A stretch of DNA of 53,157 nucleotides, from positions 1 through 53,157 of the forward strand of contig CAJJUC010000001.1 of assembly GCA_905195005.1 (NCBI GenBank), read 5' to 3'. Position 1 is the stretch's first letter. Each line of letters opens with the position of its first letter. Positions 9,111 through 26,312 of the stretch are shown piece by piece. A program made the position numbers and the translations under genes. The DNA is from an uncultured Eubacteriales bacterium. GTDB taxonomy: Bacteria; Bacillota; Clostridia; UMGS1883. The notes beneath the pieces were generated by a model that saw only the letters and a program-made list of their open reading frames with translations, was not told where the DNA came from and made no database searches.

Positions 9111-9704
9111 TTATTCTGCTGCGGGTGCGCTTTCAGCCGGAGCTTCTGCTGCTTCCGCGGGAGCCTCTGCCGGAGCTTCCTCCGCCTTCTCAACCTTAAT
9201 GTCGGCCGGTTCTACGCCGTTATCAACAAGCGCCTGCAATGTGCGGACAAGATTGCTGATGGGAGCGTTCATGCTGCCGAGCATTTTAGCAAGAAGAGTT
9301 TCACGGTTGGGCGTTGCTGCGAGCTTCTTGATTTCTTCAAGAGCAAGCACCTTTCCGTCCAAAAAACCTGCCTTGATTTCAAGCTGCTCGTTATCCTTTG
9401 CAAAATCTGCAATAACCTTAGCGGGTGCAACCTCATCCGTCATGCTGATTGCAAGAGATGTTGGGCCGTTAAGGATAGGATCAAGCTCATCAAAGCCAAC
9501 TTCCTTTGCTGCAAAGCGTGTAAGGGTATTCTTTACAACCTTATACTCAACGCCTGCCTCACGAAGCTTGTTACGAAGCTTTGTATCCTGTTCAACCGTA
9601 AGACCGCAATAGTCAACGAAAACGCCGGAAACGGCAGTCTTAAGCTGTTCTGAAAGAGCGGATACAATCTGCTTCTTTTCATCGAGAATTTTCTGACTTG
9701 GCAT
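9111..9704 (-). CDS. rplJ: 50S ribosomal protein L10, with a ~30-aa Ala/Glu/Pro-rich C-terminal tail
   Basis: 197 aa; the L10 core is followed by [26 protein letters not shown]. Located upstream of rplL. Confidence 0.95.
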
Positions 9705-9856
9705 ATTCTCACCTCACAATAAAAAATAAAAGGGATTCTCTGTCCATAGACACAAAGAATCCCGGTATTTCGGAAAAAATTCCTCGGCAGGACTTACTGT
9801 CGCCTGCTGTCTATGGAAAATATATAATCAAGCGGTTTATCCGCCCGACAACTGAA
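9705..9856 (-). promoter_or_regulatory. ribosomal protein L10 leader (autoregulatory attenuator) candidate
   Basis: 152-nt structured spacer between rplA and rplJ. Long-range pairing ccatagaca/tgtctatgg. A terminator-like stem gggattct/agaatccc (9732-9763) is followed on the minus strand by TTTTATTTTTT, right before the rplJ RBS. Confidence 0.5.
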
Positions 9857-10549
9857 TTAAACGAGCTTAGCGCTGTTAATCTTTATTCCGGGGCCCATTG
9901 TGCTGGCAACGGAAATACTTCTGATATACTGACCCTTTGCAGCAGCCGGCTTAGCCTTCATAATAGCCGCAACGAGAACATCGTAGTTTTCCTTGAGCTT
10001 TGCTGCGCCGAAAGAAGCCTTACCGATGGGGCAGTGAATGATATTTGTCTTATCAAGACGGTATTCAATCTTACCTGCTTTGACATCGTTTACAGCCTTT
10101 GCAACATCCATGCTTACCGTACCTGCCTTAGGGTTCGGCATGAGACCCTTAGGTCCGAGGATTCTTGCAATTCTTCCGACAACACCCATCATATCGGGAG
10201 TTGCGATAACAACATCGAAATCAAGCCAGTTTTCTTTCTGAATCTTTTCGATGTATTCTTCCGCACCGACATAGTCGGCGCCTGCAGCTTTCGCTTCGTT
10301 CTCCTTCTCGCCTTTTGCGAAAACAAGCACGCGAACCTTCTTACCTGTTCCGTTGGGAAGAACGACAGCGCCTCTTACCTGCTGATCCGCGTGACGTGAG
10401 TCAACGCCCAGCTTTGCATGAAATTCGATTGTTTCATCGAATTTTGCGCTTGCAGTCTTTACAACAAGGTCAAGAGCTTCGGCAGCGTCATACTGCTTAC
10501 CGGCTTCAATAAGCTTTGCGCCGGTCATATATTTCTTACCATGTTTCAT
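9857..10549 (-). CDS. rplA: 50S ribosomal protein L1
   Basis: 230 aa, [21 protein letters not shown]..., conserved L1 blocks, position after rplK. Confidence 0.95.
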
Positions 10550-10602
10550 ACTGTTACCTCCTTGTGGTTAACCGGGGTTCTGCCCCTCCCACTTTCTTTG
10601 AA

Positions 10603-11028
10603 TCATTCCTCGACGGTTACGCCCATGCTTCTTGCCGTACCTGCGATCATGCTCATAGCAGCTTCAATGCTTGCAGCATTAAGGTCGGGCATCTTTGTTT
10701 CGGCGATCTGACGAAGATCGTCCTTCTTGAGCTGAGCAACCTTTGTTTTGTTCGGCACGCCGCTTCCGCTTTCAATCTTGCAAGCCTTTTTAATAAGGAC
10801 TGCTGCCGGCGGAGTCTTTGTTACGAATGAGAAAGATCTGTCCGCATAAACAGTGATAACAACAGGGATAATAAGCCCTGCGTCCTTTGCGGTTCTTTCG
10901 TTAAATTCCTTGGTGAACTGCACAATGTTTACGCCGTGCTGACCGAGCGCCGGACCTACCGGAGGAGCCGGCGTAGCCTTTCCTGCGGGAATTTGCAATT
11001 TGATGTAACCTTCAATTTTCTGAGCCAT
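10603..11028 (-). CDS. rplK: 50S ribosomal protein L11
   Basis: ORF 10603-11085 trimmed to ATG 11028 (AAGGAGG RBS). [34 protein letters not shown]. Confidence 0.95.
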
Positions 11029-11118
11029 GGTTTTGCACCTCCTTAGAGAAAAAAATGTGGTGTTAGCGGGGAAATACCCTCCCACCTATATAACAAGCAT
11101 AACTGCCTATTATCATAA

Positions 11119-11646
11119 TCAATCCAGCGGTTCAACCTGGTAGAAATCAAACTCTACCTGCATTTCTCTGCCGCCGAACATTGTTACCATAACGTTTATT
11201 TTACGTTTTTCGGCATTTATTTCGAGAACCTCACCCATAAAGCCCTCCATGCTGCCGTCGGTTATGCGCACCGTGTCGCCGACATTAATTCCGATGTCGG
11301 GTACGCTCGTTTCAACGCCCATGCGCTCAACCTCACTGTCAGACAGGGGAACAGGCTTGCTTCCCGGACCGACAAAGCCCGTACAGCCGCGCGTGTTGCG
11401 CACGATATACCAGCTTTCATCCGTCATAACCATTTTCAAAAACACATATCCGGGATAAATTTTGCGCGAAACAGCTTTCTTTACACCGTTTTCGTTTTCC
11501 TCAACAGTTTCTTCCGTGGGGATTGCAACCTCAGCGATAAGATTTGACAGATTGCGGTTTTCAACGGTTTTTTCTATGCTGTCCTTAACCTTGTTTTCAT
11601 ACCCCGAATAGGTGTGGGCAACGTACCACTTAAATTCTGCACTCAT
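11119..11646 (-). CDS. nusG: transcription termination/antitermination factor NusG
   Basis: KWYVAHTYSGYENKVK at the N-terminus (NGN domain), C-terminal KOW domain, located between secE and rplK. Confidence 0.95.
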   Translation of the reverse strand: MSAEFKWYVAHTYSGYENKVKDSIEKTVENRNLSNLIAEVAIPTEETVEENENGVKKAVSRKIYPGYVFLKMVMTDESWYIVRNTRGCTGFVGPGSKPVPLSDSEVERMGVETSVPDIGINVGDTVRITDGSMEGFMGEVLEINAEKRKINVMVTMFGGREMQVEFDFYQVEPLD

Positions 11647-13045: not shown

Positions 13046-13678
13046 TTATTTTTTTATAAGCGTTACCATATCGCCGTTCCTGAGCCCGGCGCTGTTTGCG
13101 TCGTCAGTGTCGATATGCATTTCAACGTTGAAGTCGTCGCGCACTCTTATCTGCACATCGTAAAACTTGGTTGTTTTCTCTTTTCCGTGGCAAAGCACAT
13201 CAACGTAATCGCCGTCCTTAAGCTCATGAGCCGCAGCATATTCGGGCGTCAGATGAATATGCCTGTTTGCAATTATAACGCCTTCCTTTAAATATATGCT
13301 TCCCTTTGGACCGACAACAACTATTCTTTCGCTGCCCTCAATGTGACCCGATGGGCGAACCGGAGGGCTGACCTTAAGAATGAACGTGTCCGTTCTTGAA
13401 ATTTCAACCTGTGTGTTCTTGCGCACAGGTCCGAGCACTCTTACTCTTTCAATCGCCTTGAGCGACGGACCGACAAGCGTTACAAGCTCTTCGGAGGCAT
13501 ATTCGCGCCCCATGAGTTGCTTTTTCTTCGTAAGCTCGTAGCCCTTCCCGAAAAGGATATCGAGATGCTCCCGTGAAAGGTGGATGTGGCGCTGAGAAAC
13601 ACCGATTTTCACTTCGCCTTGGTTTACATATTCACTTGCCGCCTTGCGGACAATGTTTTCAATTTCTTTTATATCCAT
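13046..13678 (-). CDS. pduL: phosphate propanoyltransferase PduL, with an N-terminal amphipathic helix
   Basis: Duplicated RHIHL motifs (VSQRHIHLS, IANRHIHLT). N-terminus MDIKEIENIVRKAASEY. Confidence 0.85.
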   Translation of the reverse strand: MDIKEIENIVRKAASEYVNQGEVKIGVSQRHIHLSREHLDILFGKGYELTKKKQLMGREYASEELVTLVGPSLKAIERVRVLGPVRKNTQVEISRTDTFILKVSPPVRPSGHIEGSERIVVVGPKGSIYLKEGVIIANRHIHLTPEYAAAHELKDGDYVDVLCHGKEKTTKFYDVQIRVRDDFNVEMHIDTDDANSAGLRNGDMVTLIKK

Positions 13679-13959
13679 TATTCATCTACCTCTGTATCAA
13701 AAAACTTCATAAGCTCCTCGTGGGGATTTGCGATAACCTCGCAGCCGTAAACAGTTCCGAGCTTTTCCGCCTCCGCTTTTCCTGCTTCAATGGCTGCCTT
13801 AACAGCCGAAACCTGCCCCATCACCACAAAGGTAACAAGCCTTCCGCCGAGGCGCTTTTCCGAATGAATAATCCGCACCTGCGCCGCTTTAAGCATTGCG
13901 TCCAGACCGCTTATTGCCGCAACAAGACCCTGGATTTCGAGTATTCCGATTGATCTCAT
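13678..13959 (-). CDS. BMC-domain shell protein (BMC-H, 93 aa)
   Basis: MRSIGILEIQGLVAAISGLDAMLKAAQVRII...VSAVKAAIEAG is a single Pfam00936-type domain. Its stop overlaps the pduL start (TAATG). Confidence 0.85.
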   Translation of the reverse strand: MRSIGILEIQGLVAAISGLDAMLKAAQVRIIHSEKRLGGRLVTFVVMGQVSAVKAAIEAGKAEAEKLGTVYGCEVIANPHEELMKFFDTEVDE

Positions 13960-14303
13960 CTTTTAAATCCTCTCTTTCCGAGCTTCTTGTTATATTTGTC
14001 ACGGTTTATATCATTAAGATATGCCATCGCTTCGGTCTGGTCATCGGGGCGCGATATAACGTGCGACGTTATGTACTTGCCCTCACCCTCGGCATATGCC
14101 TTGCCTGCTTCAATTGCAGCCTTGACCGCCGCCGATGAGCCTTCTATTTTTACCTCCATTACAAGAGGCGCCGGAACGTCCGTCCTTATCGGGCGGTTTC
14201 TGTCAAACGCTATGATGCTCACATCGGCAGCCTTAGCCATTAAATCGGCTGTTACAAGCGCCGTTGTGAAGCTGTATACCTCGATCATTCCGAGTGCCTG
14301 CAT
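13956..14303 (-). CDS. BMC-domain shell protein (115 aa) with a basic C-terminal tail
   Basis: MQALGMIEVYSFTTALVTADLMAKAADVSII...AAVKAAIEAG, then the tail RDKYNKKLGKRGFKR. Confidence 0.8.
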   Translation of the reverse strand: MQALGMIEVYSFTTALVTADLMAKAADVSIIAFDRNRPIRTDVPAPLVMEVKIEGSSAAVKAAIEAGKAYAEGEGKYITSHVISRPDDQTEAMAYLNDINRDKYNKKLGKRGFKR

Positions 14304-14328
14304 TCAAATCATTCCTTTCGGGAGTTAA

Positions 14329-15717
14329 TCAAACGATATGAAGTCCGTCAGCCATTACGCATCTTCTTGCGCGCGTAAAGGAATGAGCAGCCGTCAAGCC
14401 CTCGCCCGTGGGTCCGGCAATGGTGAACGTTGTATAACCCTCGCCGCCTGCACCGATACCTGCATAGGAGGGAGCGTTTTTAACAAATATTGTCGTTTCA
14501 ACCTCGCGTGCAAAACGAGTGAGGTTGTCGATATTTTTTGAATGAATATGCGCACTGTGACGGCGGCCCGCTTCAGCCTTAACGCCGTACTCGATAGCCC
14601 GGTCGATATTATCAACGCGCACGATTGCAAGAATCGGCATCATAAGCTCTGTCTGAACAAAGGGATGATCAAAATCCGTTTCGCAGATGATAAGGCGCGG
14701 ATCGGCATCGATACCGATTGCCTTTAAGAACTTGCCTGCATCACGGCCAACCATTTTCTTGTTTATAACAAGCTTGCCGTCCTTTTCAACAAGTGCAACC
14801 TTAACGAGCTTGTCAATATCATCGCCCTTAACCATGTAAGCGCCGTTTTCAAGCATGCTTTGAATAAGCTCATCGGCAACGGAGGACACAACAAAGCATT
14901 CCTTTTCCGCAATGCACGGAAGGTTGTTGTCGAAGCTTGCGCCCTTAACGATGTCCGCACCGGCTTTTTTGATGTCGGCAGTTTCGTCAACGATAACCGG
15001 AGGATTGCCTGCGCCGGCGCCGATTGCCTTTTTGCCGGAGGAAAGAAGCATTTTAACAACGCCGGGACCGCCCGTTGCAACAAGCATTTTAACGAGCGGC
15101 GATTTAACCATCTCATCGGATGATTTCATTGTAGGATTCTTAACCGAAACAACAAGGTTTTCGGGACCGCCTGCTTCAAGAATCGCACGGTTTACCATAT
15201 CGACAGCAGCATTTGAGGTTTTCTTCGCATTCGGATGAGGATTGAAAACAACGGCGTTTCCGCCTGCAATCATACCCATTGAATTACAGATAACCGTTTC
15301 ACTGGGGTTTGTTGACGGCGTTATGCTTCCTATAATTCCGAAAGGAGCCATTTCTATAAGAGTAAGACCGTCGTCACCCGTCCATACGGAGGGCTTGAGA
15401 TCCTCCGTTCCGGGAGTTTTTTCGGCAACAAGCTGATGCTTTATCGTCTTATCCTCAACACGGCCCATGCCCGTTTCCTCAACGCCCATCTCGGCAAGCT
15501 TTGCCGCATTTTTTAGCGTGTATTCGCGGATTTTCGAAATCATTTTTTCGCGCTGAGCAACCGTGTAGGAACGAAATTCCTTATATGCCTTCGATACGGC
15601 TGCCAAAGCGTCCGACATTTCATCAAACACGCCGAGCTGCCTTGTATCGTTCGTCTGTGCGCCCATTTCGCTGAGAACGTTCTCAACTATCTGACTGATA
15701 TATTTTTCATCCAACAT
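14329..15717 (-). CDS. CoA-acylating aldehyde dehydrogenase (PduP/EutE-like) with an N-terminal encapsulation peptide
   Basis: ORF 14329-15750 trimmed to ATG 15717 (GAGAGGTG RBS). N-terminus MLDEKYISQIVENVLSEM. Catalytic loop NNLPCIAEKE. Confidence 0.85.
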   Translation of the reverse strand: MLDEKYISQIVENVLSEMGAQTNDTRQLGVFDEMSDALAAVSKAYKEFRSYTVAQREKMISKIREYTLKNAAKLAEMGVEETGMGRVEDKTIKHQLVAEKTPGTEDLKPSVWTGDDGLTLIEMAPFGIIGSITPSTNPSETVICNSMGMIAGGNAVVFNPHPNAKKTSNAAVDMVNRAILEAGGPENLVVSVKNPTMKSSDEMVKSPLVKMLVATGGPGVVKMLLSSGKKAIGAGAGNPPVIVDETADIKKAGADIVKGASFDNNLPCIAEKECFVVSSVADELIQSMLENGAYMVKGDDIDKLVKVALVEKDGKLVINKKMVGRDAGKFLKAIGIDADPRLIICETDFDHPFVQTELMMPILAIVRVDNIDRAIEYGVKAEAGRRHSAHIHSKNIDNLTRFAREVETTIFVKNAPSYAGIGAGGEGYTTFTIAGPTGEGLTAAHSFTRARRCVMADGLHIV

Positions 15718-15731
15718 TTGTAAGCACCTCT

Positions 15732-16280
15732 CTATAAAATGTTTTTCCACAAATCTTTTGCGGGACGGGGGATAACGGCGCTGTCAAGAAACATTCCCGT
15801 ATCTCCGCAGTCGCGCTTTGCGCGCTCAATTGCAGCAGTCACAGCCGCAACATCGCCCGTTATAAGAACATAGGACTTTCCGCACATGCCGCGCGCCAGT
15901 CTTATTTCTATAAGCTTTACCATTGACGTTTTCACCGTGTTATCCGCCGCAACGACAGCCGAAGCCGCGCTGTAGGTTTCGAACACGCCGAGCGCCTCCA
16001 CCTCAGACACATCGGTTGCTCCGCATATTGCCGGAATAACATCGTCATGAGGATTGCCGAGCACGAAGCTGTCAATAAGTCTTGACGGCAGTTTTTTGCG
16101 GCATGCATCGATTGACGCTCTTACCGCGCTGAGATCGCCGGCAAACGTTACAAGATATTTACCGGGGCAGACGGTACTTGCTTCAAGTATTTCAACCTCG
16201 GCAGTTTTAACAATTAAATCTGCCGCCTGCATACCCGATGAAACCGTAGTATATTCTACCATTCCCAATGCTTTATTCAT
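15732..16280 (-). CDS. tandem-BMC-domain shell protein (BMC-T, PduT-like)
   Basis: 182 aa with two BMC domains. Cys38 in STVCPGKY is at the position of the PduT pore [4Fe-4S] ligand, as I recall it. Confidence 0.8.
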   Translation of the reverse strand: MNKALGMVEYTTVSSGMQAADLIVKTAEVEILEASTVCPGKYLVTFAGDLSAVRASIDACRKKLPSRLIDSFVLGNPHDDVIPAICGATDVSEVEALGVFETYSAASAVVAADNTVKTSMVKLIEIRLARGMCGKSYVLITGDVAAVTAAIERAKRDCGDTGMFLDSAVIPRPAKDLWKNIL

Positions 16281-16285
16281 CTAAG

Positions 16286-17626
16286 TCAATTCCTTTCCGC
16301 AGATTCTATTGTTATTGTATCGCCCGTTACCTTAAGCACCTTCCCGTCAACCGGGCTGTGAATGGGCAGCCCCAATGCATTTTCGGGCGCTTCGGCGATG
16401 CAGTCGCCGCGCTTCACGCTTTGCCCCTCGGAAACCACGCACACGCTCGGGGCGCCGATATTCTGCCTGAGAGAGATATAAAGGCGTTTTACCTTTATTT
16501 CATCCTCAACGAGCGGCGAAGCATTATTATATTTTTCAAGGTCAAGCTTTTGCCTGAGCCTTGCAGTTGTCACTCTCCTGAAATCGCGTTCCTCAAGAGG
16601 AACCGCTTTTATTTTATCAAAGGTCTTAAGACCGTTTTTCTGAATCACTTTCTTTGCAAAGCCGATAAGCGTTCTGGGGTTAAGCCCCTGCTTGCAGGCA
16701 ACCATTTCACAAATTCCGCACTGCGAACAGTACTGCGTGTTAAGAAATGCTTTTGTATTCGTCGCATCGTCATTTTTCACGCCGCGCATGAACATGTGCG
16801 GTTCAATCGGATAACCGAGCAAATGCCTGGGGCACATATCCGTGCACATTCTGCACTGGCAGCACGCACTCATGGCGCGCCTTTTCAGAACGTTTACGTT
16901 TTGCATACGCTGCGCGATAACAGGATTCGTTCTCGGCAGCGCCAAAACTCCGTTTGTTGTTTTTTTGACGGTGTCATCACTTTTTGCGAGATTGCCCGTC
17001 ATCGGACCGCCGTTTAACAAAACGGTGTCGTCCTCGGTCGCTCCGCCGGCAAGCTCAACAAGATAACTGAGCGGTGTTCCGAGCGGAACGCAGTATGTCT
17101 GCGGATTTTTAACGGCTCCGCCGACCGTTACGTACTTATGCGTCACGCACTCGCCGTGAAGTGCGCGGTATGTATTAAGAATCGTTTCAACATTATAAAC
17201 GATTACCTTAACATCTATCGGGAGACCCCCGGCAGGCACGACACGTCCTGTCGTGTCATTGATGAGAATAATCTCATCGCCTGCCGGATAAACCTCCTTA
17301 AGATATTTTACTTCTCCGTGTTCGAACGCAGCAATATCGCGCTCGACAGCCTCCGCAGTGCTTGCATAGCCCTTTTTCAAAGCTACATAAAAATGTTCTG
17401 CACCGAGACTTTCGCGGATAACGTCAAGAGTGCTTATGATTTCATAAGAATAACGGCGCAGAAGCTGACGGTGAAGCCTGAAAAGCGGCTCACATTCCGC
17501 ACAGTTAAGAATAACCGTGTCAGCCTTGTCGTTAAGTTTTGCATATCCCGGAAATCCGGCGCCGCCGGCACCGGCAATACCGCAATTCTTCATCAAACCT
17601 TTAAGTTCGTCTAACCTCATTGCCAT
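16286..17626 (-). CDS. PduS/RnfC-like flavin and Fe-S oxidoreductase
   Basis: GAGGAGFPGYAKL nucleotide/flavin motif, SLBB-like region, and two ferredoxin motifs CCQCRMCTDMCP and CSQCGICEMVAC. Confidence 0.75.
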   Translation of the reverse strand: MAMRLDELKGLMKNCGIAGAGGAGFPGYAKLNDKADTVILNCAECEPLFRLHRQLLRRYSYEIISTLDVIRESLGAEHFYVALKKGYASTAEAVERDIAAFEHGEVKYLKEVYPAGDEIILINDTTGRVVPAGGLPIDVKVIVYNVETILNTYRALHGECVTHKYVTVGGAVKNPQTYCVPLGTPLSYLVELAGGATEDDTVLLNGGPMTGNLAKSDDTVKKTTNGVLALPRTNPVIAQRMQNVNVLKRRAMSACCQCRMCTDMCPRHLLGYPIEPHMFMRGVKNDDATNTKAFLNTQYCSQCGICEMVACKQGLNPRTLIGFAKKVIQKNGLKTFDKIKAVPLEERDFRRVTTARLRQKLDLEKYNNASPLVEDEIKVKRLYISLRQNIGAPSVCVVSEGQSVKRGDCIAEAPENALGLPIHSPVDGKVLKVTGDTITIESAERN

Positions 17627-17641
17627 TCCCTTTCCGTCTTA

Positions 17642-17908
17642 TCAGTGAATCGAAGAAACATCGTCGATGATTCCGACGATAGCCGCGTCAACGGGCGCGC
17701 TTTCCTCGTCCGTTCCTATTCTTGCGGCGCTTCCCATCGCCACAAGAACAGCTTCGCCCATACCGGCGCCGACATTGTCAACCGCGACAATGCGCTTTGC
17801 CTCCGGGCCGAATCCGGGAAGCGTTTCCACGATCATAAACTTATTTCCTACAAGCTTTTCGTTCTTGCGCGTCGAAACAAGTGTTCCGACAACCTTACCG
17901 ACTAACAT
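17642..17908 (-). CDS. BMC vertex protein (BMC-P; EutN/PduN/CcmL family)
   Basis: MLVGKVVGTLVSTRKNEKLVGNKFMIVETL..., 88 aa. Confidence 0.85.
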   Translation of the reverse strand: MLVGKVVGTLVSTRKNEKLVGNKFMIVETLPGFGPEAKRIVAVDNVGAGMGEAVLVAMGSAARIGTDEESAPVDAAIVGIIDDVSSIH

Positions 17909-17922
17909 TGAATTTCCTCCGA

Positions 17923-18201
17923 TTATTTAAGAGAGGGAAGAATTTTTTCAACATCAGTGTGAGGACGGGGAATTACGTGAACCGCGATAAGCTCGCCGAG
18001 CTTGCTTGCATTTGCGCTGCCTGCGTCAACAGCTGCTTTAACGGCGCCGACGTCGCCCCTTACCATAACGCTTACAAGACCGCTGCCGATTTTCTCCGTT
18101 CCGATAAGTGTTACGTTTGCTGCCTTAAGCATAGAATCCGCTGCTTCGATTGCCGCAACAAGACCTCTTGTTTCTACCATTCCGAGTGCTTCCTGTGTCA
18201 T
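17923..18201 (-). CDS. PduA/PduJ-like BMC-H shell protein (paralog A)
   Basis: ATG 18201 sits 8 nt after AAGGAGG and gives [22 protein letters not shown]... The ORF-track version (to 18276) adds [25 protein letters not shown], so the start is ambiguous. Confidence 0.85.
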
Positions 18202-18292
18202 AACCTTAACCTCCTTATTTATTTCAGCCGCCGCCGGAGCAGCAGCCTTTTTTGCCTGTTTTTTTTCAGCCATCATTTTTCACCCTTTCCGA

Positions 18293-18568
18293 TTAAAGAG
18301 TCGGAAGAATTTTCTCAACGTCAGTGTGAGGACGGGGAATTACGTGAACTGCGATAAGCTCGCCGAGCCTGCTTGCGCTTGTGCTGCCTGCTTCAACTGC
18401 TGCCTTAACTGCGCCGACGTCGCCCCTTACCATAACGCTTACAAGACCGCTGCCGATCTTTTCCGTTCCGATAAGCGTTACCTCTGCCGCTTTAACCATA
18501 GCGTCTGCTGCTTCAACCGCCGCAACAAGACCTCTTGTTTCAATCATACCCAATGCTTCCTGAGCCAT
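18293..18568 (-). CDS. PduA/PduJ-like BMC-H shell protein (paralog B)
   Basis: [61 protein letters not shown]... Confidence 0.9.
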
Positions 18569-18600
18569 TGTATGTACCTCCTATATAAATAATAATTATT

Positions 18601-19800
18601 TTACTTGTTTACGATGGCGATCTTAAGACCTTCCATCTTCAGGTTTGTAACGTGCGCTTCGTTAATCTCGCTGAGCGGGAAGCGGTGCGTTATAAGCTCC
18701 GACATCGGAAGACCGATAGCCTTTGCTCTCTTGAGAAAATCAAACGTTGTTGCATAATCGCGGAGCGTGTAAACCCACGAGCCGACAATCGTGATTTCCT
18801 TTGAACAAATATCAAAGTGCGGATTAATCGCAGCGTCGCCTCCGTTGATGAAGAAGCCGAGCTCGCAAAGTCCGCCGCCGTTGCGGATAAACTTATATAT
18901 ATTGCTGTGTGCCGCCGGAGCGCCCGTGCACTGGAAAGCAAAGTCGGCAAGATGACCGCCGAAGGTTGCCTCAACCGCACCGGTGAGAGCTTCAATGCCC
19001 TTATGCTCCGTGAAGTTGACCGTTTTGTCCGCGCCCATTTTCTTTGCAAATTCAAGGCGTTTCGGCTGACCGTCAACCGCTGTGATATTTTCAATACCCA
19101 TTGTTCTGAGAACGGCTATGCAGATAAGACCGATAGGTCCGCAGCCCTGAACGACAACGCGGCTGTTGAAGCGCAGGATTCCCGTTGTTTTTGCACGCTC
19201 AACCGCGTGAACGAGAACTGCGCACGGCTCTATAAGTATTCTCGAATCAAGGTCAAGGTCGCTTACGTTGAACACGGAAGATCCCTTTCTGATAAGAATA
19301 TAATCGGAGAACCAGCCGTTAAGGTGCACATCGTCATCGGGAAGAAGTCCGTAAACATCCGCTCCGCCGACATTCTGCTTGTTAAGGTCAAACATTGTGA
19401 TATCGGGATTATCCTTAAATATCATGCAGGTTACAACCTTATCGCCGACAGAAAGCTTCTTTCCGGCGCTGTCAACCTTTACGTCCTTGCCCATCTTAAC
19501 GATTTCGCCCGTTCCCTCGTGACCGAGAACAACAGGGATAAGACCGAAGGGGTCGCGCTTAAATTCATGCGCGTCCGTGCCGCAGATGCCGCAGCCCTCA
19601 ACCTTTACGAGAATATCGCCGTCACCAACCTCGGGAATGGGATATTCCTTAATGTCATAATGTTCAAGCTTTGTAAGCATTGCAACGCGAGCCGTTTTCG
19701 GGATAGGACCCGACGCACTCGGAGCGGCAGCCGGAGCGCCGTTCATTTCACTGAGCACCTGCTTTACAATCTGCTGAATTTTTTCAGAATTGATGTCCAT
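18601..19800 (-). CDS. zinc-dependent (MDR-family) alcohol dehydrogenase with an N-terminal encapsulation peptide and Ala/Pro linker
   Basis: ORF 18601-19833 trimmed to ATG 19800. N-terminus MDINSEKIQQIVKQVLSEMNGAPAAAPSASGPIP, then the ADH core with CGICGTDAHEF and GHEGTGEIV. Confidence 0.8.
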   Translation of the reverse strand: MDINSEKIQQIVKQVLSEMNGAPAAAPSASGPIPKTARVAMLTKLEHYDIKEYPIPEVGDGDILVKVEGCGICGTDAHEFKRDPFGLIPVVLGHEGTGEIVKMGKDVKVDSAGKKLSVGDKVVTCMIFKDNPDITMFDLNKQNVGGADVYGLLPDDDVHLNGWFSDYILIRKGSSVFNVSDLDLDSRILIEPCAVLVHAVERAKTTGILRFNSRVVVQGCGPIGLICIAVLRTMGIENITAVDGQPKRLEFAKKMGADKTVNFTEHKGIEALTGAVEATFGGHLADFAFQCTGAPAAHSNIYKFIRNGGGLCELGFFINGGDAAINPHFDICSKEITIVGSWVYTLRDYATTFDFLKRAKAIGLPMSELITHRFPLSEINEAHVTNLKMEGLKIAIVNK

Positions 19801-19865
19801 TGTATCATTCCTTTCTTTCCGTCCGTATCGCAAACGGAAAAATCATTGACAATCCGCCGGGCGGA

Positions 19866-20660
19866 TTATTTGCCCATTGCTTCAAGAACCTTTTTTGTGA
19901 TTTCCGCTACAAGGTCATTGTCGCCTTTTTTGCCGTTCGAGCAGCCGCCGCAGCTGTGGCAGCTTGCCTTACCGTCACGGTTGTTCGGGCAGAGATCTGC
20001 CGGATGCTTACCCTTAAGACCGAACTGACGGCGGATTTCGTACAGGCGCTGAACCTGCTCCTCATTAAGCTCCTTAGGACCGCCGAGCTGCTTTGAATTG
20101 AAGAGAAGCTGTGCATAAAACTCAACGGATTCCATCTTATGATATGCGTTCAGAAGCGAATCGCTGTAGGAAAGTGCGCCGTGGTTGGCAAGAAGAACAG
20201 CGTCAAAATGCTGAAGATACTTTTCAACAGCATCCGGAATTTCGTTTGTCGAAGGTGTGCCGTACTCGGCAATCGGAACGCAGCCGAGAGCGATGACAGC
20301 CTCGGGCATAATCGGCTGAGTCAGCGGAATGCCTGCAATTGCAAAGCTTGTTGCATAGATGGGATGAGCATGCACAACGCTTCTGACGTCGGGACGCTCT
20401 TTGTAAACTCTCATATGCATTTTGATTTCGCTGGAGGGCTTGAACGAACCGTTTGCTTCAAGCACCTTTCCCTCCTTATCGACCTTGCAGATGTAATCGG
20501 GAGTCATGAAGCCCTTGCTTACGCCCGTGGGTGTGCAAAGAAACTCGTTGTCGGAAATTTTAACCGAGATGTTGCCGTCGTTTGCGGCAACCATGCCTCT
20601 GTCATAAATTCTTTTACCGATTTCGCAAATCTGTTTTTTGATTTCGTACTCGTTTACCAT
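19866..20660 (-). CDS. class II aldolase (L-fuculose/rhamnulose-1-phosphate aldolase-like) with a Cys-rich linker and C-terminal encapsulation peptide
   Basis: ORF 19866-20669 trimmed to ATG 20660 (AAAGGA RBS). NDGNISVK and VVHAHPIYAT are class II aldolase motifs. Tail: CPNNRDGKASCHSCGGCSNGKKGDNDLVAEITKKVLEAMGK. Confidence 0.8.
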   Translation of the reverse strand: MVNEYEIKKQICEIGKRIYDRGMVAANDGNISVKISDNEFLCTPTGVSKGFMTPDYICKVDKEGKVLEANGSFKPSSEIKMHMRVYKERPDVRSVVHAHPIYATSFAIAGIPLTQPIMPEAVIALGCVPIAEYGTPSTNEIPDAVEKYLQHFDAVLLANHGALSYSDSLLNAYHKMESVEFYAQLLFNSKQLGGPKELNEEQVQRLYEIRRQFGLKGKHPADLCPNNRDGKASCHSCGGCSNGKKGDNDLVAEITKKVLEAMGK

Positions 20661-20721
20661 ATGTTTCATCCTTTCAAAAAGAAATTAATTAATAGCTGTT
20701 TCAAATTGTTGGCTTATGTTT

Positions 20722-20750
20722 ATTTTACACTCATTACAGCGTGTTGTCAA
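20722..20750 (-). promoter_or_regulatory. sigma-A-type promoter for the aldolase-to-pduL transcription unit
   Basis: Minus strand TTGACA (20750-20745), 17-nt spacer, TAAAAT (20727-20722). Confidence 0.5.
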
Positions 20751-20760
20751 TAGTATTTTG

Positions 20761-20780
20761 TGGTTTTTTGTGGTTTTTTG
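20761..20780 (-). repeat. perfect tandem 10-mer (tggttttttg x2), giving phased A-tracts upstream of the -35 (UP-element-like)
   Basis: 20761-20770 equals 20771-20780. On the minus strand it reads caaaaaaccacaaaaaacca, just 5' of the -35. Confidence 0.5.
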
Positions 20781-20786
20781 CCTATT

Positions 20787-21215
20787 TTATTGAGAAAGAT
20801 AGTTTAAAATCTCACTTATTCCCTCGTTATTGTATGATGAGGTGAAGAAAATCCGCTTGCAGCCGGCAATTCTAAGCCACATTTCCGCCATATCCGGGCG
20901 TGCGTGCGGCGCGTCCGTTTTTGTGACAATTCCTATAACCTCCCTGTTTGCCATCGGAGCAACGTTCGGGGGGTAGAGTGAATACGGTTCTGTTGCCGAA
21001 AGCAGCAGCCCCACCACATCAGCCTCATAAGAATAGAGCGCAAGCGCACGTCCGAGCTCGGGGTTTTCGGCATATTCGCCGGGGGTATCTATCACCGCGC
21101 CGCCGAAATTGACATACTGTGTTTTGTGATAATGAAGTTTCTCTCCGCGCAGCGCCTGCAGCAGCGTTGTTTTTCCTGCCTCGCTTCTTCCGATTAAAAT
21201 AAGCTTTTTCATCAT
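20787..21215 (-). CDS. EutP/PduV-family small GTPase
   Basis: ORF 20787-21233; the likely start ATG 21215 overlaps the upstream stop (ATGA). P-loop GRSEAGKTTLLQAL, DTPGEY, TKTD. Confidence 0.75.
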   Translation of the reverse strand: MMKKLILIGRSEAGKTTLLQALRGEKLHYHKTQYVNFGGAVIDTPGEYAENPELGRALALYSYEADVVGLLLSATEPYSLYPPNVAPMANREVIGIVTKTDAPHARPDMAEMWLRIAGCKRIFFTSSYNNEGISEILNYLSQ

Positions 21216-21580
21216 GTTTTTGTTATCGGGCAAACTGTGAAGCCGAGCGTTTTTTCCGCATATGCGACAACCGCGCTTACCGAAGCGTCAACCTCGGAAA
21301 CGGTTCCCGTCACAATAAGCGTTCCGCTGAAACGGTCAACAAATCCAATCTCAACGCCCGACGCCTTGATTGCAATATCACCGGCAATAATCGCTGTTTC
21401 GCTCGGAGTCATCGTAATAATTCCGATTGCCGATTTTGAATAGTCAACCGAAGGATCCAATCCGAGCTTTCTGTACAGAATTTCATCCGGATTTGCAATG
21501 ACATGCGCAAGCGTTATCTGCTTGCCGGGGACAATTTCCTGTATTATCCGCATTTTGTCCTTTAATTCAAATTCATTCAC
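21212..21580 (-). CDS. circularly permuted BMC shell protein (PduU/EutS-like)
   Basis: 122 aa. RIIQEIVPGKQITLAHVIANPDEILYRKLGL...SAIGIITMTP matches the PduU/EutS pattern. Confidence 0.8.
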   Translation of the reverse strand: MNEFELKDKMRIIQEIVPGKQITLAHVIANPDEILYRKLGLDPSVDYSKSAIGIITMTPSETAIIAGDIAIKASGVEIGFVDRFSGTLIVTGTVSEVDASVSAVVAYAEKTLGFTVCPITKT

Positions 21581-21584
21581 GCTG

Positions 21585-22370
21585 TCATCCCCCGATCTTT
21601 GCTTTCATTCCGCATTGCTCCGCCACAGCCTTAAGCCGCTGCATTTTCTCATCCGACGGCGGTTCAAGCTCTCCCATGCCGTAATCCCTGCCGAGCCAGC
21701 CGTACTTGTCCCGTCCGAGCTGATGATACGGCAGCAGATTGATTTCCTCAACATGCATTTTATCGTGTGCAAACCGCGCAATTTCCGCAATTTCCTCCTC
21801 TGTGTCGTTAAAAGTCGGAATTGTCGGCACGCGGACGATGCACTTTTTCGCATTCTGCGCAATTTTAACCGCGTTTTCAAGAATAAGCGAATTGTCGCGC
21901 GTTGTAAACTGCTTATGTTTTTCGCTGTTTATGTGCTTTATGTCGAGAAGATATGTATCGATATAAGGCAGCAGCCTTGCAATTGTTTCAAAGGAGGCGC
22001 AGCCCGTCGATTCCACCGCCGTGTTTATTCCGTGATTCTTTGCAAGCTTCAAAAGAGCAAGCGAAAAATCGGGCTGCATCAGCATTTCGCCGCCGGAAAG
22101 CGTCATTCCTCCGCCGCTGCGGCGGTAATACGATATATCCTTTTTAACCTCGGCAAAAACCTCCGCCGCCGTCACATCGCGCCCTACAAGCTTTGACCCG
22201 TCCGGCATATTCATCGTCTGAAACTCGAATTTCTGCGATTCGGGATTGCAGCACCAACGGCAGCGCAGCGGACAGCCCTTCAGAAAAACAATCGTTCTGA
22301 TCCCCGGTCCATCGTGCACCGAGTATTTCTGTATGTCAAATATTCTGCCCTTTACGTTTGAGTAGTCCAT
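21585..22370 (-). CDS. glycyl-radical enzyme activase (radical SAM, short PflA-like form)
   Basis: 261 aa. VHDGPGIRTIVFLKGCPLRCRWCCNPES carries the CxxxCxxC motif. No CxxCxxCxxxC ferredoxin-type insert is visible after it. Confidence 0.9.
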   Translation of the reverse strand: MDYSNVKGRIFDIQKYSVHDGPGIRTIVFLKGCPLRCRWCCNPESQKFEFQTMNMPDGSKLVGRDVTAAEVFAEVKKDISYYRRSGGGMTLSGGEMLMQPDFSLALLKLAKNHGINTAVESTGCASFETIARLLPYIDTYLLDIKHINSEKHKQFTTRDNSLILENAVKIAQNAKKCIVRVPTIPTFNDTEEEIAEIARFAHDKMHVEEINLLPYHQLGRDKYGWLGRDYGMGELEPPSDEKMQRLKAVAEQCGMKAKIGG

Positions 22371-22383
22371 TTCTGCCTCCTTA

Positions 22384-24894
22384 TCAGAAGCTCATCTGCT
22401 CCGTTCTTCTGATAATATCATCCTGAAGCGAGCGCGACAGAGTTGTAAACAGTGCGCTGTAACCCGCAACGCGGACAACAAGATTCTTGTAATTTTCGGG
22501 ATGCTCCTGCGCATCGCGCAGCGTTTCGCGGCTTACAACGTTAAACTGAACATGCATTCCCTTCTGGTCGAAGTATGCGCGTATAAGCGAAACAAAGTTC
22601 TGCAAGCCCTCATCGCCTTTAAGCGCCGACGGATGGAATTTCATATTGAACAGAGTTCCGTTTGAGGCAATTGCATGGTCGATTTTTGCAACCGAGTTTG
22701 CCGCTGCCGTCGGTCCGTGAACATCGCGCCCCGCGCAGGGAGAAACACCGTCCGCAATCGGGGTGAACGCCATGCGCCCGTCGGGAGTTGCGCCAGTCTG
22801 CGCCCCGAGCGGCACATTTGCCGAAACGGGGTAAAGCCCTGCCTGGAACATTCCGCCGCGCGGATTTTTGTATTTCTCGAGCGGGCGGGTATATGTATAA
22901 GCCGCCGCGCGGGCAAACTCGTCAACCTCGTCCATATCGTTTCCGAATTTCGGCAGCGCGGTTATGTCCTCCAGAAGCTGTGCATAGCGTGCGCTTCCGC
23001 TGCTCCCCCTGCTTTCATGAACATTTTTGTAAATTTCCTTAATGATTTCCTCGTTGAGCGAAACGCTGTGCTCGGCAAGGCGGCTTGCAATCTGCACTGT
23101 GATTTCTTCATCGCTTGCGGATGAATTTCCGCCGCTGAAATTCGCCTCCAGTGCCGCCTTAACCTCTTTGAGACTGTATTTCTTTTCATCATAGACAAGC
23201 TTTTTGACTGCGTAAAGCGCGTCCGCCATGTTCGCGATTCCGAAGCCCTGCGGTCCCGTGAAATTGTAGTGTGCGCCGCCCTCCTGAACCGATTTTCCTT
23301 TTTCGATGCAGTCGGAAACCATGGACGACAAGAACGGCAGCGGACAGCGGATTGAATGAGCCTTATCGATTGAATTATCGGAATTTACAAGCAGCGTTAT
23401 CATGTATTCCATCTGCTTTTTGTACGCGTCAAAGAATTTTTCGTATGTATCGAGCGTTTCAACCTCACCCGTTTTAACCGAAATCTGTTCGCCCTTGCTT
23501 TTTCCGTTCGAGAACACAAGCTCGAGCGGACGAAGCATGTTGAAGAACGCGGCATCGTGCCAGCCGTCCGTTTTTGACGGAGCCTGCGGCTCAACGCAGC
23601 CGATTATACAGTAATTATGCGCGTCCTCCGATGTTAATCCGCGGCTTAACAGAGCCGGAATGATAACCTCGTCATTGTAATATGCCGGAAGCCCGACGCC
23701 CGTGCGCGTTACATGCGCCGCCATTATAAGCAGCTCGTTCGGCGAACCGTTCCACACCCTTATCGATATGGACGGCTGCGGAAGCATAATATGGAGCGTT
23801 GCGTTCAGGCATATAAACGACAGCTCGTTTGTTGAATCGCGCCCGTCTTCCGTCTGACCGCCGACAATAAGGTTCTGGAAAAGACTGTAGCCTGCAAAGC
23901 CCTCCGCCGAAACGGCATCGCGCACCTTGTTGAGGTCATTGAGCTTGACCCAGATACAGTCAACAAGCTCCTGTGCAGTCGAAAGCGTGATTTTTCCGCT
24001 TTCGTAATCCTTTTTGAAGTAAGGATACATATACATATCAAATCTGCCGGGAGAAATCGAATGACCGCTGCCCTCCGTCTGAATAAGCATCTGAACAAAC
24101 CAGAACGACTGGCACGCTTCATAAAAGCTCTGCGCTCCGTTTGCCGGAACTCTGCGGCAGTTTGCGGCAATTCTCAAAAGCTCCTCTTTGCGTTCGCCGG
24201 TCTCCGCGCTCGCCATACTTTCGGCAAGCTGCGCATATCGGTTTGCATATAAAACGGCTGCGTCGCAGCACTCGATAACCGCTTCGAGGAAGCTTCTGCG
24301 CTGTGCATAATCCGCGTCCGCCGGCTGCACCTTTTCAAGCGCCGCCTGCGCCTCGGTCTTTATCCCGTTGTAGCCTATTGCAAGTACCTTTCCGTAGTCA
24401 ACGCACAGATGACCCACACCGTTATAAAAATAGTTTCCCGTTGTGAAAATGTTATGCTCGATCGCCTTAAGCGCTTCGGGCGCCATAAAGCTCGTTGCAA
24501 GATCGCTGTTTGTCTTGCCCTTCCAGTATTTATGCGCTTCTCTGAGCGCCTGCTTGTTTTCTTCGCTTATGTAGAATGGATCGGCAGAGCGCGTTGCAAC
24601 GGTGTCAAACTCTTTCTCGAGCCACTCGAACGAATATTCCGGGAAGGTTTGGCAGCTTCTCGGTCTCTTTGTGTTGCTGCCGACAATAAGCTCACCTTCG
24701 CGAATCGTTATCGGAAGATTTTTCATTATATGCGCAAACGCGGCGCTTCTTCTTTTAATTATCGGAAGATTCTCCGTCTGCATATAGCTCTCGGTAACAA
24801 GCCGCGCGCGGTCGCTCTCAATCTGAGGCATCTGCTCGAAAAGCATTTCCTTAAGCTTTTCAACGCGCGGAGTCACACCGATGCGTTCCATCAT
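22384..24894 (-). CDS. glycyl radical enzyme of the dehydratase/eliminase clade (probable 1,2-propanediol dehydratase), 836 aa
   Basis: ORF 22384-24963 trimmed to ATG 24894 (MMERIGVTPRVEKLKEML). Thiyl loop IIGCVEPQ (Cys433/Glu435), WHD (Asp447), radical loop VVRVAGYSA (Gly811). Confidence 0.9.
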   Translation of the reverse strand: MMERIGVTPRVEKLKEMLFEQMPQIESDRARLVTESYMQTENLPIIKRRSAAFAHIMKNLPITIREGELIVGSNTKRPRSCQTFPEYSFEWLEKEFDTVATRSADPFYISEENKQALREAHKYWKGKTNSDLATSFMAPEALKAIEHNIFTTGNYFYNGVGHLCVDYGKVLAIGYNGIKTEAQAALEKVQPADADYAQRRSFLEAVIECCDAAVLYANRYAQLAESMASAETGERKEELLRIAANCRRVPANGAQSFYEACQSFWFVQMLIQTEGSGHSISPGRFDMYMYPYFKKDYESGKITLSTAQELVDCIWVKLNDLNKVRDAVSAEGFAGYSLFQNLIVGGQTEDGRDSTNELSFICLNATLHIMLPQPSISIRVWNGSPNELLIMAAHVTRTGVGLPAYYNDEVIIPALLSRGLTSEDAHNYCIIGCVEPQAPSKTDGWHDAAFFNMLRPLELVFSNGKSKGEQISVKTGEVETLDTYEKFFDAYKKQMEYMITLLVNSDNSIDKAHSIRCPLPFLSSMVSDCIEKGKSVQEGGAHYNFTGPQGFGIANMADALYAVKKLVYDEKKYSLKEVKAALEANFSGGNSSASDEEITVQIASRLAEHSVSLNEEIIKEIYKNVHESRGSSGSARYAQLLEDITALPKFGNDMDEVDEFARAAAYTYTRPLEKYKNPRGGMFQAGLYPVSANVPLGAQTGATPDGRMAFTPIADGVSPCAGRDVHGPTAAANSVAKIDHAIASNGTLFNMKFHPSALKGDEGLQNFVSLIRAYFDQKGMHVQFNVVSRETLRDAQEHPENYKNLVVRVAGYSALFTTLSRSLQDDIIRRTEQMSF

Positions 24895-24983
24895 ATTATA
24901 ATCCAAAACAACCCCTCCGTTTCCGTAAATGACAATTTTCCTTTTATGCCGCTGTGGGTTCAATTCTGTTATGCCTTATATAT

Positions 24984-25012: not shown

Positions 25013-25112
25013 TAGCAAATCGCAGAAATTCACAGATAAACACATATGTTTTCGCCCAAAACGGTCATCAAACCCACATAATGCCTTTTTAAAGGTTTTT
25101 TCAAGCTGTGTA

Positions 25113-25141
25113 TTGCAAAGAAAAAGCAAATGTGGTATTAT
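25113..25141 (+). promoter_or_regulatory. sigma-A-type promoter for tsaE-tsaB-rpiB-nrdR
   Basis: TTGCAA (25113-25118), 17-nt spacer ending in TGg (extended -10), TATTAT (25136-25141). Confidence 0.45.
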
Positions 25142-25179
25142 ATATAAATAGGAAATTATTATTACGGAGGGTGTGCCGA

Positions 25180-25623
25180 TTGGAATACTTATCTCACAGC
25201 GCCGAGGAAACGGAGCGCATTGCATATGATTTGGCCGCTGAAATTGAGCCGCCGTGCGTAATCTGCCTTTTCGGAGACCTCGGAGCCGGCAAAACGGCGT
25301 TTGTCCGCGGATTCGCGCGGCGCTTTGGAGTGACGGAGGGCGTGTGCTCGCCAACGTTCATAATAATGCACTGCTACAGCGGCGCCGTGCAGATAAATCA
25401 TTACGACCTGTATCGCATAGGCAGCTTTGAGGAGCTGGAGGATATTGGCTTTGACGAACAGATTTCAAGCGGAATCTCGCTCATTGAATGGCCGGATTCC
25501 TTTATTGACTGCCTGCCGGAGGAGCGCATTGATATTTCAATTACGCGCAGCGGCGATGATGAGAACACGCGCCGGATCACGGTTAAGGATTTGCGCCGGG
25601 TGCGAAAGGAGCAGTTATCATGA
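25180..25623 (+). CDS. tsaE: tRNA t6A37 biosynthesis ATPase TsaE
   Basis: ORF 25108-25623 trimmed to TTG 25180, 9 nt after GGAGG. P-loop LFGDLGAGKTAFVRG. Confidence 0.8.
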   Translation: MEYLSHSAEETERIAYDLAAEIEPPCVICLFGDLGAGKTAFVRGFARRFGVTEGVCSPTFIIMHCYSGAVQINHYDLYRIGSFEELEDIGFDEQISSGISLIEWPDSFIDCLPEERIDISITRSGDDENTRRITVKDLRRVRKEQLS

Positions 25624-26312
25624 ATCTGAAAATACTTGCGCTCGATACGTCCGCGCTCACCGCGTCCGCCGCGCTGCTTGACGGCAACACTGTCAAGGGG
25701 GAAATTTCATTCACCTGTGCGCTCAATCATTCACAGACGATTATGGAATCGGTTGACGCACTGCTGCGCAGATTGTCGCTCACGCCGAAGGATGTTGACC
25801 TGTTTGCCTGCGCGAACGGTCCGGGCTCGTTCACAGGGCTCAGAATCGGCATCGGTACAGTTAAGGGGCTTGCTTTCGGAGCTGATAAAATGACTGTCGG
25901 AGTGCCGACGCTTCTGGCGCTTGCGCATAATGTGTCCGTAAGCGATTGCCTGATTGCCCCGATTATGGATGCGCGCCGCAGTCAGGTTTACAATGCGCTT
26001 TACCGAAGCGAAAACGGGATCCTTCGCGAGGTTTGTCCTCCGCGCGCCGTTTCGGTTGAGGATTTGTGCGGCGGGCTGAACGAAAAAACGCTGTTTGTCG
26101 GTGACGGAGTTAATCCCTACCGCGAAAAAATCACTGAGCTGCTCGGCGGAAACGCACTGTTTGCACCGCCGAATCTTTGCCTGCAAAGCGCAGCAAGCGT
26201 TGCACTTGCCGCACGCGATATTCCGCCCGTTTCGGCGGCGGAGCTGGGGGCTGTGTATCTTCGCAAATCGCAGGCGGAAAGAGAACGGGAAGAAAAGAAA
26301 GGAAACGAATGA
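25620..26312 (+). CDS. tsaB: tRNA t6A37 biosynthesis protein TsaB
   Basis: MNLKILALDTSALTASAALLDG..., GPGSFTGLRIGIG. Overlaps tsaE by 4 nt. Confidence 0.85.
   Translation: MNLKILALDTSALTASAALLDGNTVKGEISFTCALNHSQTIMESVDALLRRLSLTPKDVDLFACANGPGSFTGLRIGIGTVKGLAFGADKMTVGVPTLLALAHNVSVSDCLIAPIMDARRSQVYNALYRSENGILREVCPPRAVSVEDLCGGLNEKTLFVGDGVNPYREKITELLGGNALFAPPNLCLQSAASVALAARDIPPVSAAELGAVYLRKSQAEREREEKKGNE

Follow-up and report, generated by a model that had tools for sequence, protein, structure and literature searches.

The window analysed here, i.e., the whole 53,157-nucleotide stretch of contig CAJJUC010000001.1, contains a microcompartment locus of the type GRM5 whose signature protein, a glycyl radical enzyme (GRE), carries an internal insertion of about 48 residues. 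The best overall explanation is that this insertion is an intramolecular encapsulation peptide (EP) of a B12-independent 1,2-propanediol dehydratase of the GRM5 type, with a probability of roughly 0.7. It can be regarded as practically certain that the insertion is the element already published as the "intramolecular encapsulation peptide" of the GRM5 propanediol dehydratase. The interpretation is already known, and the original prediction for this stretch, which proposed from the letters alone that the block is an internal targeting signal, is a correct independent re-derivation of a published prediction. That the insertion really mediates encapsulation or core assembly is rather probable. 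The window is confirmatory: it provides a further well-formed GRM5 locus, that of an uncultured Clostridia bacterium of the gut, with a feature described in 2015-2019.

Extent and anatomy of the insertion

The GRE and the parts of its insertion are listed below (residues are counted from the ATG at 24894; pLDDT, predicted local distance difference test).

22384..24894 (-): GRE, predicted glycyl radical 1,2-propanediol dehydratase, 836 aa from ATG 24894 (alignment, Foldseek)
22990..23133 (-): insertion, residues 588-635, GGNSSASDEEITVQIASRLAEHSVSLNEEIIKEIYKNVHESRGSSGSA (translation, phmmer, anchor-segment length)
23113..23133 (-): linker 1, residues 588-594, GGNSSAS (pLDDT <50 at 588-592; poorly conserved, with high column entropy, gaps and variable length)
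23071..23112 (-): helix 1, residues 595-608, DEEITVQIASRLAE (AlphaFold2; register T599-x-x-I602-A603-x-x-L606-A607)
23053..23070 (-): inter-helix loop, residues 609-614, HSVSLN (non-helical in AlphaFold2)
23011..23052 (-): helix 2, residues 615-628, EEIIKEIYKNVHES (AlphaFold2; register I618-x-x-I621-Y622-x-x-V625)
22990..23010 (-): linker 2, residues 629-635, RGSSGSA (pLDDT <50 at 630-632; variable in length and composition)

The presence of an insertion of about 48 residues is confirmed by phmmer and by MAFFT, and its extent is essentially that of the block marked earlier. DhaB1, the glycerol dehydratase of Clostridium butyricum (1R8W), and at least 30 other solved GREs align with the query in two stretches in phmmer, with a break at query residue ~588 and a resumption at ~646. 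The exceptions among solved GREs are 5I2A, aligned without break, and 9RCO, which resumes at query residue 632. The unmatched gap of the query (~589-645) amounts to 57 residues vs. 9 in DhaB1. The nearest GRE families were compared by MAFFT using 140 full-length representatives (50% identity clusters): the anchor segment L582..G651 has 70 aa in the query vs. 22-34 aa in 137 of the 140 representatives. It had been stated that related GREs go almost directly from NFxG to PKFGND; this is not the case, since 22-34 residues lie between L582 and G651. The stretch common to other GREs matches query ARYAQLLEDITAL (635-647), and the true insert is thus ~589-634.

The AlphaFold2 model, computed from an alignment of 53 homologues (mean pLDDT 79; predicted template modelling score, pTM, 0.81), reproduces the two short helices between Gly/Ser linkers that had been proposed, i.e., helices 595-608 and 615-628, a 6-residue loop and linkers with pLDDT <50. 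The insertion is thus modelled as a helix-loop-helix on two flexible linkers, placed between the NFxG turn and the helix preceding PKFGND. Among the aligned homologues, conservation is found at 598/599 (T599), 602 (Ile or Val), A603 and L606 of helix 1 and at 618, 621, 622 and 625 of helix 2, so that the register h-x-x-h-h-x-x-h-(h) of terminal EPs applies to both helices. Position 610 of the loop is Gly or Asn in 50 of the 53 sequences and Ser in the query, and position 613 is a conserved hydrophobic. The identity of the insertion among homologues is far under the protein-wide mean of 77%.

The Cys loop IIGCVEPQ, with the catalytic C433 and the general base E435, shows no variation in the 53 homologues. 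RVAGYS is the C-terminal glycyl radical motif of GREs, RVxG[YF], and its Gly811 is found opposite Gly763 of the DhaB1 RVAGYS (phmmer, PDB sequences). The phmmer alignment thus agrees with two numberings given beforehand: (i) Cys433 and Glu435 of GCVEP are numbered as in DhaB1 when counted from ATG 24894; (ii) the radical Gly at 811 vs. 763 in DhaB1 corresponds to a net gain of 48 residues. Database proteins identical to the GRE are annotated with PF01228 and PF02901. The gene of the cognate radical SAM activating enzyme adjoins that of the GRE, an adjacency also present in 78 of 80 related loci. The 62% identity to the characterised Roseburia inulinivorans enzyme and the locus type suggest that the GRE is a 1,2-propanediol dehydratase.

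The agreement with the DhaB1 numbering rests on which start codon is picked. The open reading frame (ORF) in full covers 22384-24963 (-); ORF callers begin at TTG 24963 (859 aa), and identical database proteins are called at this length. An in-frame TTG at 24906, 5 nt after GGAGGGG (24912-24918), leads to 840 aa, the same as most close homologues, and ATG ATG is found at 24894, 12 nt downstream of this TTG. TTG 24906 (840 aa) is probably the start. As had been noted, the GRE has no N- or C-terminal extension: its alignments with 5I2A (query 7-834 vs. 11-840 of 843) and with 1R8W extend from one end to the other, and it has at most 4 extra N-terminal residues if TTG 24906 is the start. The 859-aa call adds 23 residues (MNPQRHKRKIVIYGNGGVVLDYN); that they contain an N-terminal EP was rejected, since homologues begin at MMERIG or 4 residues earlier and the Shine-Dalgarno sequence lies inside this stretch.

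Likeness to encapsulation peptides and distribution

Terminal EPs are indeed borne by four other enzymes of the locus.

19744..19785 (-): Zn-dependent alcohol (lactaldehyde) dehydrogenase, N-terminal EP EKIQQIVKQVLSEM
15664..15705 (-): acylating aldehyde dehydrogenase, N-terminal EP KYISQIVENVLSEM
19875..19916 (-): class II (fuculose/rhamnulose-phosphate) aldolase, C-terminal EP DLVAEITKKVLEAM
13628..13672 (-): phosphotransacylase PduL, N-terminal EP IKEIENIVRKAASEY

When each 14-mer of the whole GRE is scored against these four EPs, the best one is 616-629, i.e., helix 2 (10.75; mean of all windows −10.6, standard deviation 5.8). The hydrophobic moment of helix 2 is also the maximum of the GRE (99.8th percentile). 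Helix 1 is joint second in EP similarity, and its hydrophobic moment reaches only the ~94th percentile. A "pair of EPs" is thus a fair description of the layout, helix 2 being the stronger candidate in the query GRE. The hydrophobic spacing announced for the insertion is that of the four terminal EPs: the register is shared and helix 2 is the top-scoring window of the GRE.

The same scoring was applied to 46 GRM5 loci with at least 3 extractable terminal EPs, each 13-residue window of a GRE being compared with the EPs of its own locus. The best EP-like window lies wholly within the insertion in 40 of the 46 loci, and the insertion is among the top three in 45 of them. Since the insertion represents 4.3% of the windows, the nominal binomial P is ~2e-48, a value in which independence is overstated since the loci are related. 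The insertion also has the other features by which EPs are described, i.e., an amphipathic helix, a poorly conserved linker and its absence from homologues outside microcompartments.

The published "intramolecular encapsulation peptide" is made of two ~15-residue helices with a ~5-residue loop and disordered linkers, one helix being amphipathic in the manner of an EP; it is not found in the C. butyricum glycerol dehydratase, and the R. inulinivorans GRM5 enzyme has a predicted equivalent (Zarzycki 2017, PMC5311937). The GREs of GRM3, GRM4 and GRM5 are described as having a ~60-aa insertion predicted as an EP (Ferlez 2019, PMC6325248). The query insertion matches the published description in its site, its size (~50-60 residues), its two helices, its 6-residue loop, its amphipathic helix (at least one) and the lack of a terminal EP. 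Its linkers (~7 residues) are shorter than the ~15 residues described for GRM3. A 2015 study by Zarzycki is also said to have reported the intramolecular EP in the propanediol dehydratases of GRM3, GRM4 and GRM5. The explanation put forward for the query, i.e., an internal signal that would bring the signature enzyme into the shell, is thus the one published for this insertion, where it is likewise a prediction.

In the Rhodopseudomonas palustris GRM3 enzyme, deletion of the insertion led to a better solubility; the shortened enzyme kept its ability to bind its activating enzyme and sustained conversion in reconstituted core reactions (Zarzycki 2017, PMC5311937). In a 2025 study, the sequence of "the encapsulation peptide" was taken out of the Raoultella planticola GRM3 enzyme for solubility (structure 9RCO). 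A gain of solubility on deletion of the insertion is usual EP behaviour.

Among the representatives compared, the insertion is confined to microcompartment-linked propanediol dehydratase lineages. An enlarged anchor segment is found in only 3 of the 140 representatives: the query (70 residues), P0121 (81 residues) and P0122 (71 residues). In a search of 1.84 billion cluster representatives, the insertion is spanned by 2 among the best 150 matches. P0121 resembles DhaB1 and the GRM3 enzyme most; it is encoded in a GRM3-type locus with BMC-H, BMC-T and BMC-P genes, and its insertion contains a very EP-like helix, TYELVLEAVKKVLGE. P0122 (L082:7187-11291), 45% identical to the query, represents a third insert-bearing GRE lineage. 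It is preceded by PduL and a flavoprotein, both with EP-like N-termini (TIEKITAEVISRL and ENILERIKGDLLEQIINCI); no shell gene and no adjacent activating enzyme are found within 21 kb. The insertions of the three lineages are widely different in sequence in the MAFFT alignment and occupy the same site. Three of the nearest representatives without insertion (P0124-P0126) have no microcompartment genes within 10 kb.

At a shorter distance, a genome scan gave 80 species-level loci whose GRE is 66-80% identical to the query. The insertion is present in 80 out of 80, with an anchor segment of 65-83 residues. At least one ORF with a BMC domain is found in 65 of these loci; most of the others are contigs ending just past the GRE. 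The nearest locus (80% identity) belongs to a metagenome-assembled genome of an uncultured gut Clostridia bacterium.

Proposed mechanism, orphan loci and rival explanations

Since the GRE has no terminal extension, the hairpin would stand in for a terminal EP. Held by two flexible tethers at the enzyme surface, it would present one or two EP-like hydrophobic faces, and these faces, from one or both helices, would attach to the lumen-facing side of the shell proteins, to EPs on other cargo, or to both. In this way the GRE dimer would be recruited to the cargo core during microcompartment assembly, together with the activating enzyme, which has no EP and would enter bound to the GRE. If this is true, (i) an internal, doubly tethered element widens the cargo-loading rules for engineered protein shells; (ii) enzymes with buried or catalytically important termini could be tagged in a surface loop; (iii) cargo would be recognisable from sequence where its gene sits apart from the shell operon, e.g., at the orphan GRE loci considered below.

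Several points weigh against an EP. The insertion is internal (588-635 of 836), unlike the terminal location which defines classical EPs, and the literature treats the internal location as a separate "new type" of EP (Zarzycki 2017, PMC5311937). In the 46 loci, neither helix of the insertion shows a greater similarity to the terminal EPs of the locus it comes from than to terminal EPs of the remaining loci (z=0.54 and p=0.30 for helix 1; z=1.02 and p=0.16 for helix 2); covariation thus gives no support for a common co-evolving binding partner. T599, I621 and Y622 are more conserved in the clade than is usual for EPs, which would be expected of a packed hairpin no less than of a binding face. 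According to the account relayed by Zarzycki (2017, PMC5311937), the crystallographers saw the homologous block of 5I2A only as an unusual oligomerisation interface, and the enzyme did not aggregate. According to Ferlez (2019, PMC6325248), GRM GREs had not been studied biophysically within a microcompartment, and a literature search found no later work of this kind and no encapsulation, pull-down or imaging experiment on the internal element. Lastly, 7 of the 80 insert-bearing loci have no shell, aldolase-type cargo or PduL genes in ~10 kb downstream. No loss of amphipathicity is seen in the insertions of these orphan loci: helix 1 is more amphipathic, if there is a difference at all, and helix 2 a little less so (n=7). 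Their intact insertions fit targeting in trans and also a role independent of the shell.

The seven shell-less loci (L010, L021, L027, L031, L042, L055 and L062; L020 and L058 are probably to be added) belong to Clostridium disporicum, C. hominis, C. celatum, Blautia acetigignens, B. ammoniilytica and two uncultured lineages, and their GREs are 67-69% identical to the query. In most of them the pair formed by GRE and activating enzyme stands alone among unrelated genes, e.g., peptide ABC transporters. Orphan pairs arose several times, each being nearest to relatives located beside shell genes: relocation away from shell genes occurred independently at least four times (Clostridium sensu stricto, Blautia, Acetatifactor and an unnamed Clostridia lineage). 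One orphan GRE (L062:9983-12541) has an extra 12-residue insertion, SRANLLEMSKVM, in the hairpin loop; its activating enzyme is ~4 kb away, not adjacent, and a class II aldolase is the sole other locus-type gene nearby.

The occurrence of the block in genomes without BMC shell genes had been raised together with the original prediction, as an argument against it. These seven loci, locally shell-less over ~10 kb, come near to such a case but do not clearly amount to it: for two of the species, a microcompartment locus is on record in published catalogues. Two of these give GRM5 or "GRM5like" shell loci for C. celatum DSM 1785, and GRM5 or "GRM5like" loci are given for C. disporicum strains other than that of L010. 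The simplest reading is that the orphan-locus GREs are delivered in trans. The broader proposal, i.e., that the hairpin is a packaging signal wherever its gene lies and that a relocated GRE and its activating enzyme still reach an aldolase-type ("GRM5-like") compartment in trans, is put forward tentatively, at slightly under even odds. If it is true, an intact insertion predicts cargo status better than gene neighbourhood. In gut Firmicutes with a fucose/rhamnose compartment, the GRE dehydratase was found in 10 of 13 genomes and was co-localised in 6, and it was concluded that the compartment works without propanediol dehydratase where the gene is not co-localised (Ravcheev 2019); packaging in trans, if true, argues against this conclusion. 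Orphan GRE loci constitute a useful natural test case for targeting.

The rival explanation which survives best, though itself unlikely, is that the hairpin is a self-association module: it would join GRE dimers into tetramers or larger assemblies and make no contact with the shell, packaging being indirect through condensation of the cargo core. The 5I2A block lies, as relayed by Zarzycki (2017, PMC5311937), in an oligomerisation interface that other GREs do not show; helix-bundle contacts are typically made by two-helix hairpins whose hydrophobic faces are conserved; and removal of the insertion lowers aggregation in GRM3 homologues. Self-association would also account for the intact amphipathic insertions kept at orphan loci. 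Moreover, if ~40 residues missing in 5I2G, the companion structure of 5I2A, are the insertion, the latter is ordered only in a particular packing. Crystal contacts are, however, weak evidence of assembly in solution, and the insertion is confined to microcompartment-tied lineages. In addition, the accepted view is that EPs also drive cargo aggregation (Ferlez 2019, PMC6325248), so that self-association is closer to a sub-mechanism of EPs than to a true alternative.

It is much less probable that the insertion is a functionless, lineage-specific surface decoration, tolerated at a permissive loop and inherited by descent. This would agree with the GRM3 homologue which, without insertion, folds, binds its activating enzyme and works, with the crystallisation of a second truncated GRM3 homologue, with the low identity of the insertion relative to the 77% protein mean and with the lack of covariation between terminal EPs and insertion. 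On the other hand, helix register and amphipathicity are kept over 80 species at 66-80% overall identity and the insertion is never lost, whereas a neutral loop is expected to shrink or to vary far beyond an anchor segment of 65-83 aa. Three lineages have divergent insertions at the same site, all in EP or microcompartment contexts, and the insertion is the most EP-like part of the GRE in 40 of 46 loci.

That the hairpin serves to dock a redox or activation partner (e.g., activating enzyme, PduS or flavodoxin) and is not a targeting signal is hardly credible: PduS and PduT are always encoded in GRM5 loci and GRE activation in a closed shell requires a local electron supply (Ferlez 2019, PMC6325248), and the GRM5 activating enzyme lacks the ferredoxin domain of other GRM activating enzymes, but GRM3 and GRM4 enzymes carry the insertion despite different partners (Ferlez 2019, PMC6325248) and the insertion has no Cys or His motifs, nor anything suggesting cofactor or cluster binding. 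Docking of the activating enzyme in particular is contradicted by the insert-less R. palustris GRE, which still bound and co-purified with its activating enzyme (Zarzycki 2017, PMC5311937).

The locus and its comparison with known systems

Judged from its gene content, the locus is a textbook GRM5 fucose/rhamnose microcompartment operon. The order is GRE, activating enzyme, BMC-H, PduV, class II aldolase, Zn-dependent alcohol dehydrogenase, two BMC-H and BMC-P, followed by PduS, PduT, acylating aldehyde dehydrogenase, two BMC-H, PduL and a DeoR regulator. Shell and cargo genes at 13678..21580 (-) were assigned with Pfam profiles (PF00936, PF03319, PF10662, PF01512 and others).

21585..22370 (-): GRE-activating enzyme, radical SAM, 261 aa (PF04055 and PF13353)
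21212-21580 (-): BMC-H
20787-21233 (-): PduV
18293-18568 (-): BMC-H
17923-18276 (-): BMC-H
17642-17908 (-): BMC-P
16286-17626 (-): PduS
15732-16280 (-): PduT
13956-14303 (-): BMC-H
13678-13959 (-): BMC-H

The features which characterise GRM5 are present, i.e., GRE, activating enzyme, class II aldolase (PF00596) and a lactaldehyde reductase of the Zn-alcohol dehydrogenase type (PF00107/PF08240). The shell set comprises five BMC-H ORFs (one with its domain at 51-118), EutN, PduS and a two-domain BMC protein of 182 aa; the published catalogue gives four BMC-H for GRM5, thus one less than in the query locus. The activating enzyme has no ferredoxin-like insert, no Fer4 domain beyond the radical SAM cluster and no EP. 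Absence of the ferredoxin insert is peculiar to the activating enzymes of GRM5 (Ferlez 2019, PMC6325248).

Some other observations concern the locus. Between the core of the aldolase and its C-terminal EP there is a conserved Cys/His-rich stretch, HPADLCPNNRDGKASCHSCGGCS (window 19875-20030 (-)), with the pattern C-x8-9-C-H-x-C-G-x-C; it is found in 6 of 7 related loci (L003, L004, L006, L014, L033 and L064), the spacing being different in L043. It has the look of a small metal-binding knuckle, located in a region that is commonly regarded as a simple linker. The BMC-H at 17923-18276 (-) has a Lys/Ala-rich N-terminal extension of ~25 residues, absent from the otherwise near-identical neighbour at 18293-18568. 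One flank of the operon (8701-11646 (-)) contains the housekeeping genes nusG-rplK-rplA-rplJ-rplL, and the other (25108-26312 (+)) contains tsaE/tsaB-like genes, judged by translation alone. Since housekeeping genes are present on both flanks, the microcompartment operon is considered chromosomal. No mobile-element boundary is obvious around the operon in the parts of the window examined.

The closest known system is the R. inulinivorans diol dehydratase (5I2A/5I2G), from a locus catalogued as GRM5, the same type as the query locus. It aligns with the query in a single end-to-end alignment (62% identity, 1218 bits; Foldseek TM 0.88). The insertion is included (query 588-645 vs. 593-650), and Cys loop, Gly radical motif, site and two-helix layout are common to both enzymes. 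Since this alignment is continuous across the insertion, the query block is homologous to one in an existing crystal structure. The 5I2A insertion differs by a weak sequence conservation, by linkers that are not Gly/Ser-rich and by the replacement of Y622 of the query clade; in the account given by Zarzycki (2017, PMC5311937), its depositors made no link between the block and a microcompartment. The Foldseek table gives 836-837 modelled residues for 5I2A chains and 796 for 5I2G chains. The ~40 residues missing from 5I2G may be the insertion, which would then be ordered in one crystal form only. One may speculate, on the hint given by these two structures, that the order of the hairpin depends on the state of the enzyme, and that packaging is coupled to this state.

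The GRM3 enzymes (R. palustris BisB18; R. planticola, 9RCO-9RCR) resemble the query, and not DhaB1, in having helices on disordered linkers at the same site. They differ from it by an identity of ~52-56%, by longer linkers and by only one obvious strongly amphipathic helix; their activating enzyme has a ferredoxin domain, unlike that of the query locus. The full-length GRM3 enzyme aggregates and its insertion was deleted for solubility, whereas nothing comparable is reported for the GRM5 enzyme.

DhaB1 (1R8W) has the same fold as the query, the same numbers for C433 and E435 and an identity of ~52%. Its segment of 9 residues instead of 57 contains no insertion, and it is not microcompartment-associated (Zarzycki 2017, PMC5311937). 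CutC (GRM1 and GRM2) is, like the query enzyme, the GRE signature enzyme of a microcompartment and requires a packaging signal; this is a short N-terminal EP in GRM1 or an N-terminal extension of ~350 aa in GRM2 (Ferlez 2019, PMC6325248), and the CutC segment at the site of the insertion is short.

Terminal EPs, i.e., those of the PduP, PduD and EutC type and those of the alcohol dehydrogenase, aldehyde dehydrogenase, aldolase and PduL of the query locus, have in common with the insertion an amphipathic helix of ~14-18 residues, the pattern h-x-x-h-h-x-x-h-h, a poorly conserved linker and their absence from non-compartment homologues. For several of them, necessity and sufficiency have been shown by experiment (Ferlez 2019, PMC6325248). 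They consist of a single helix on one tether, whereas the insertion of the GRE lies within the protein, comprises two helices and is held on either side.

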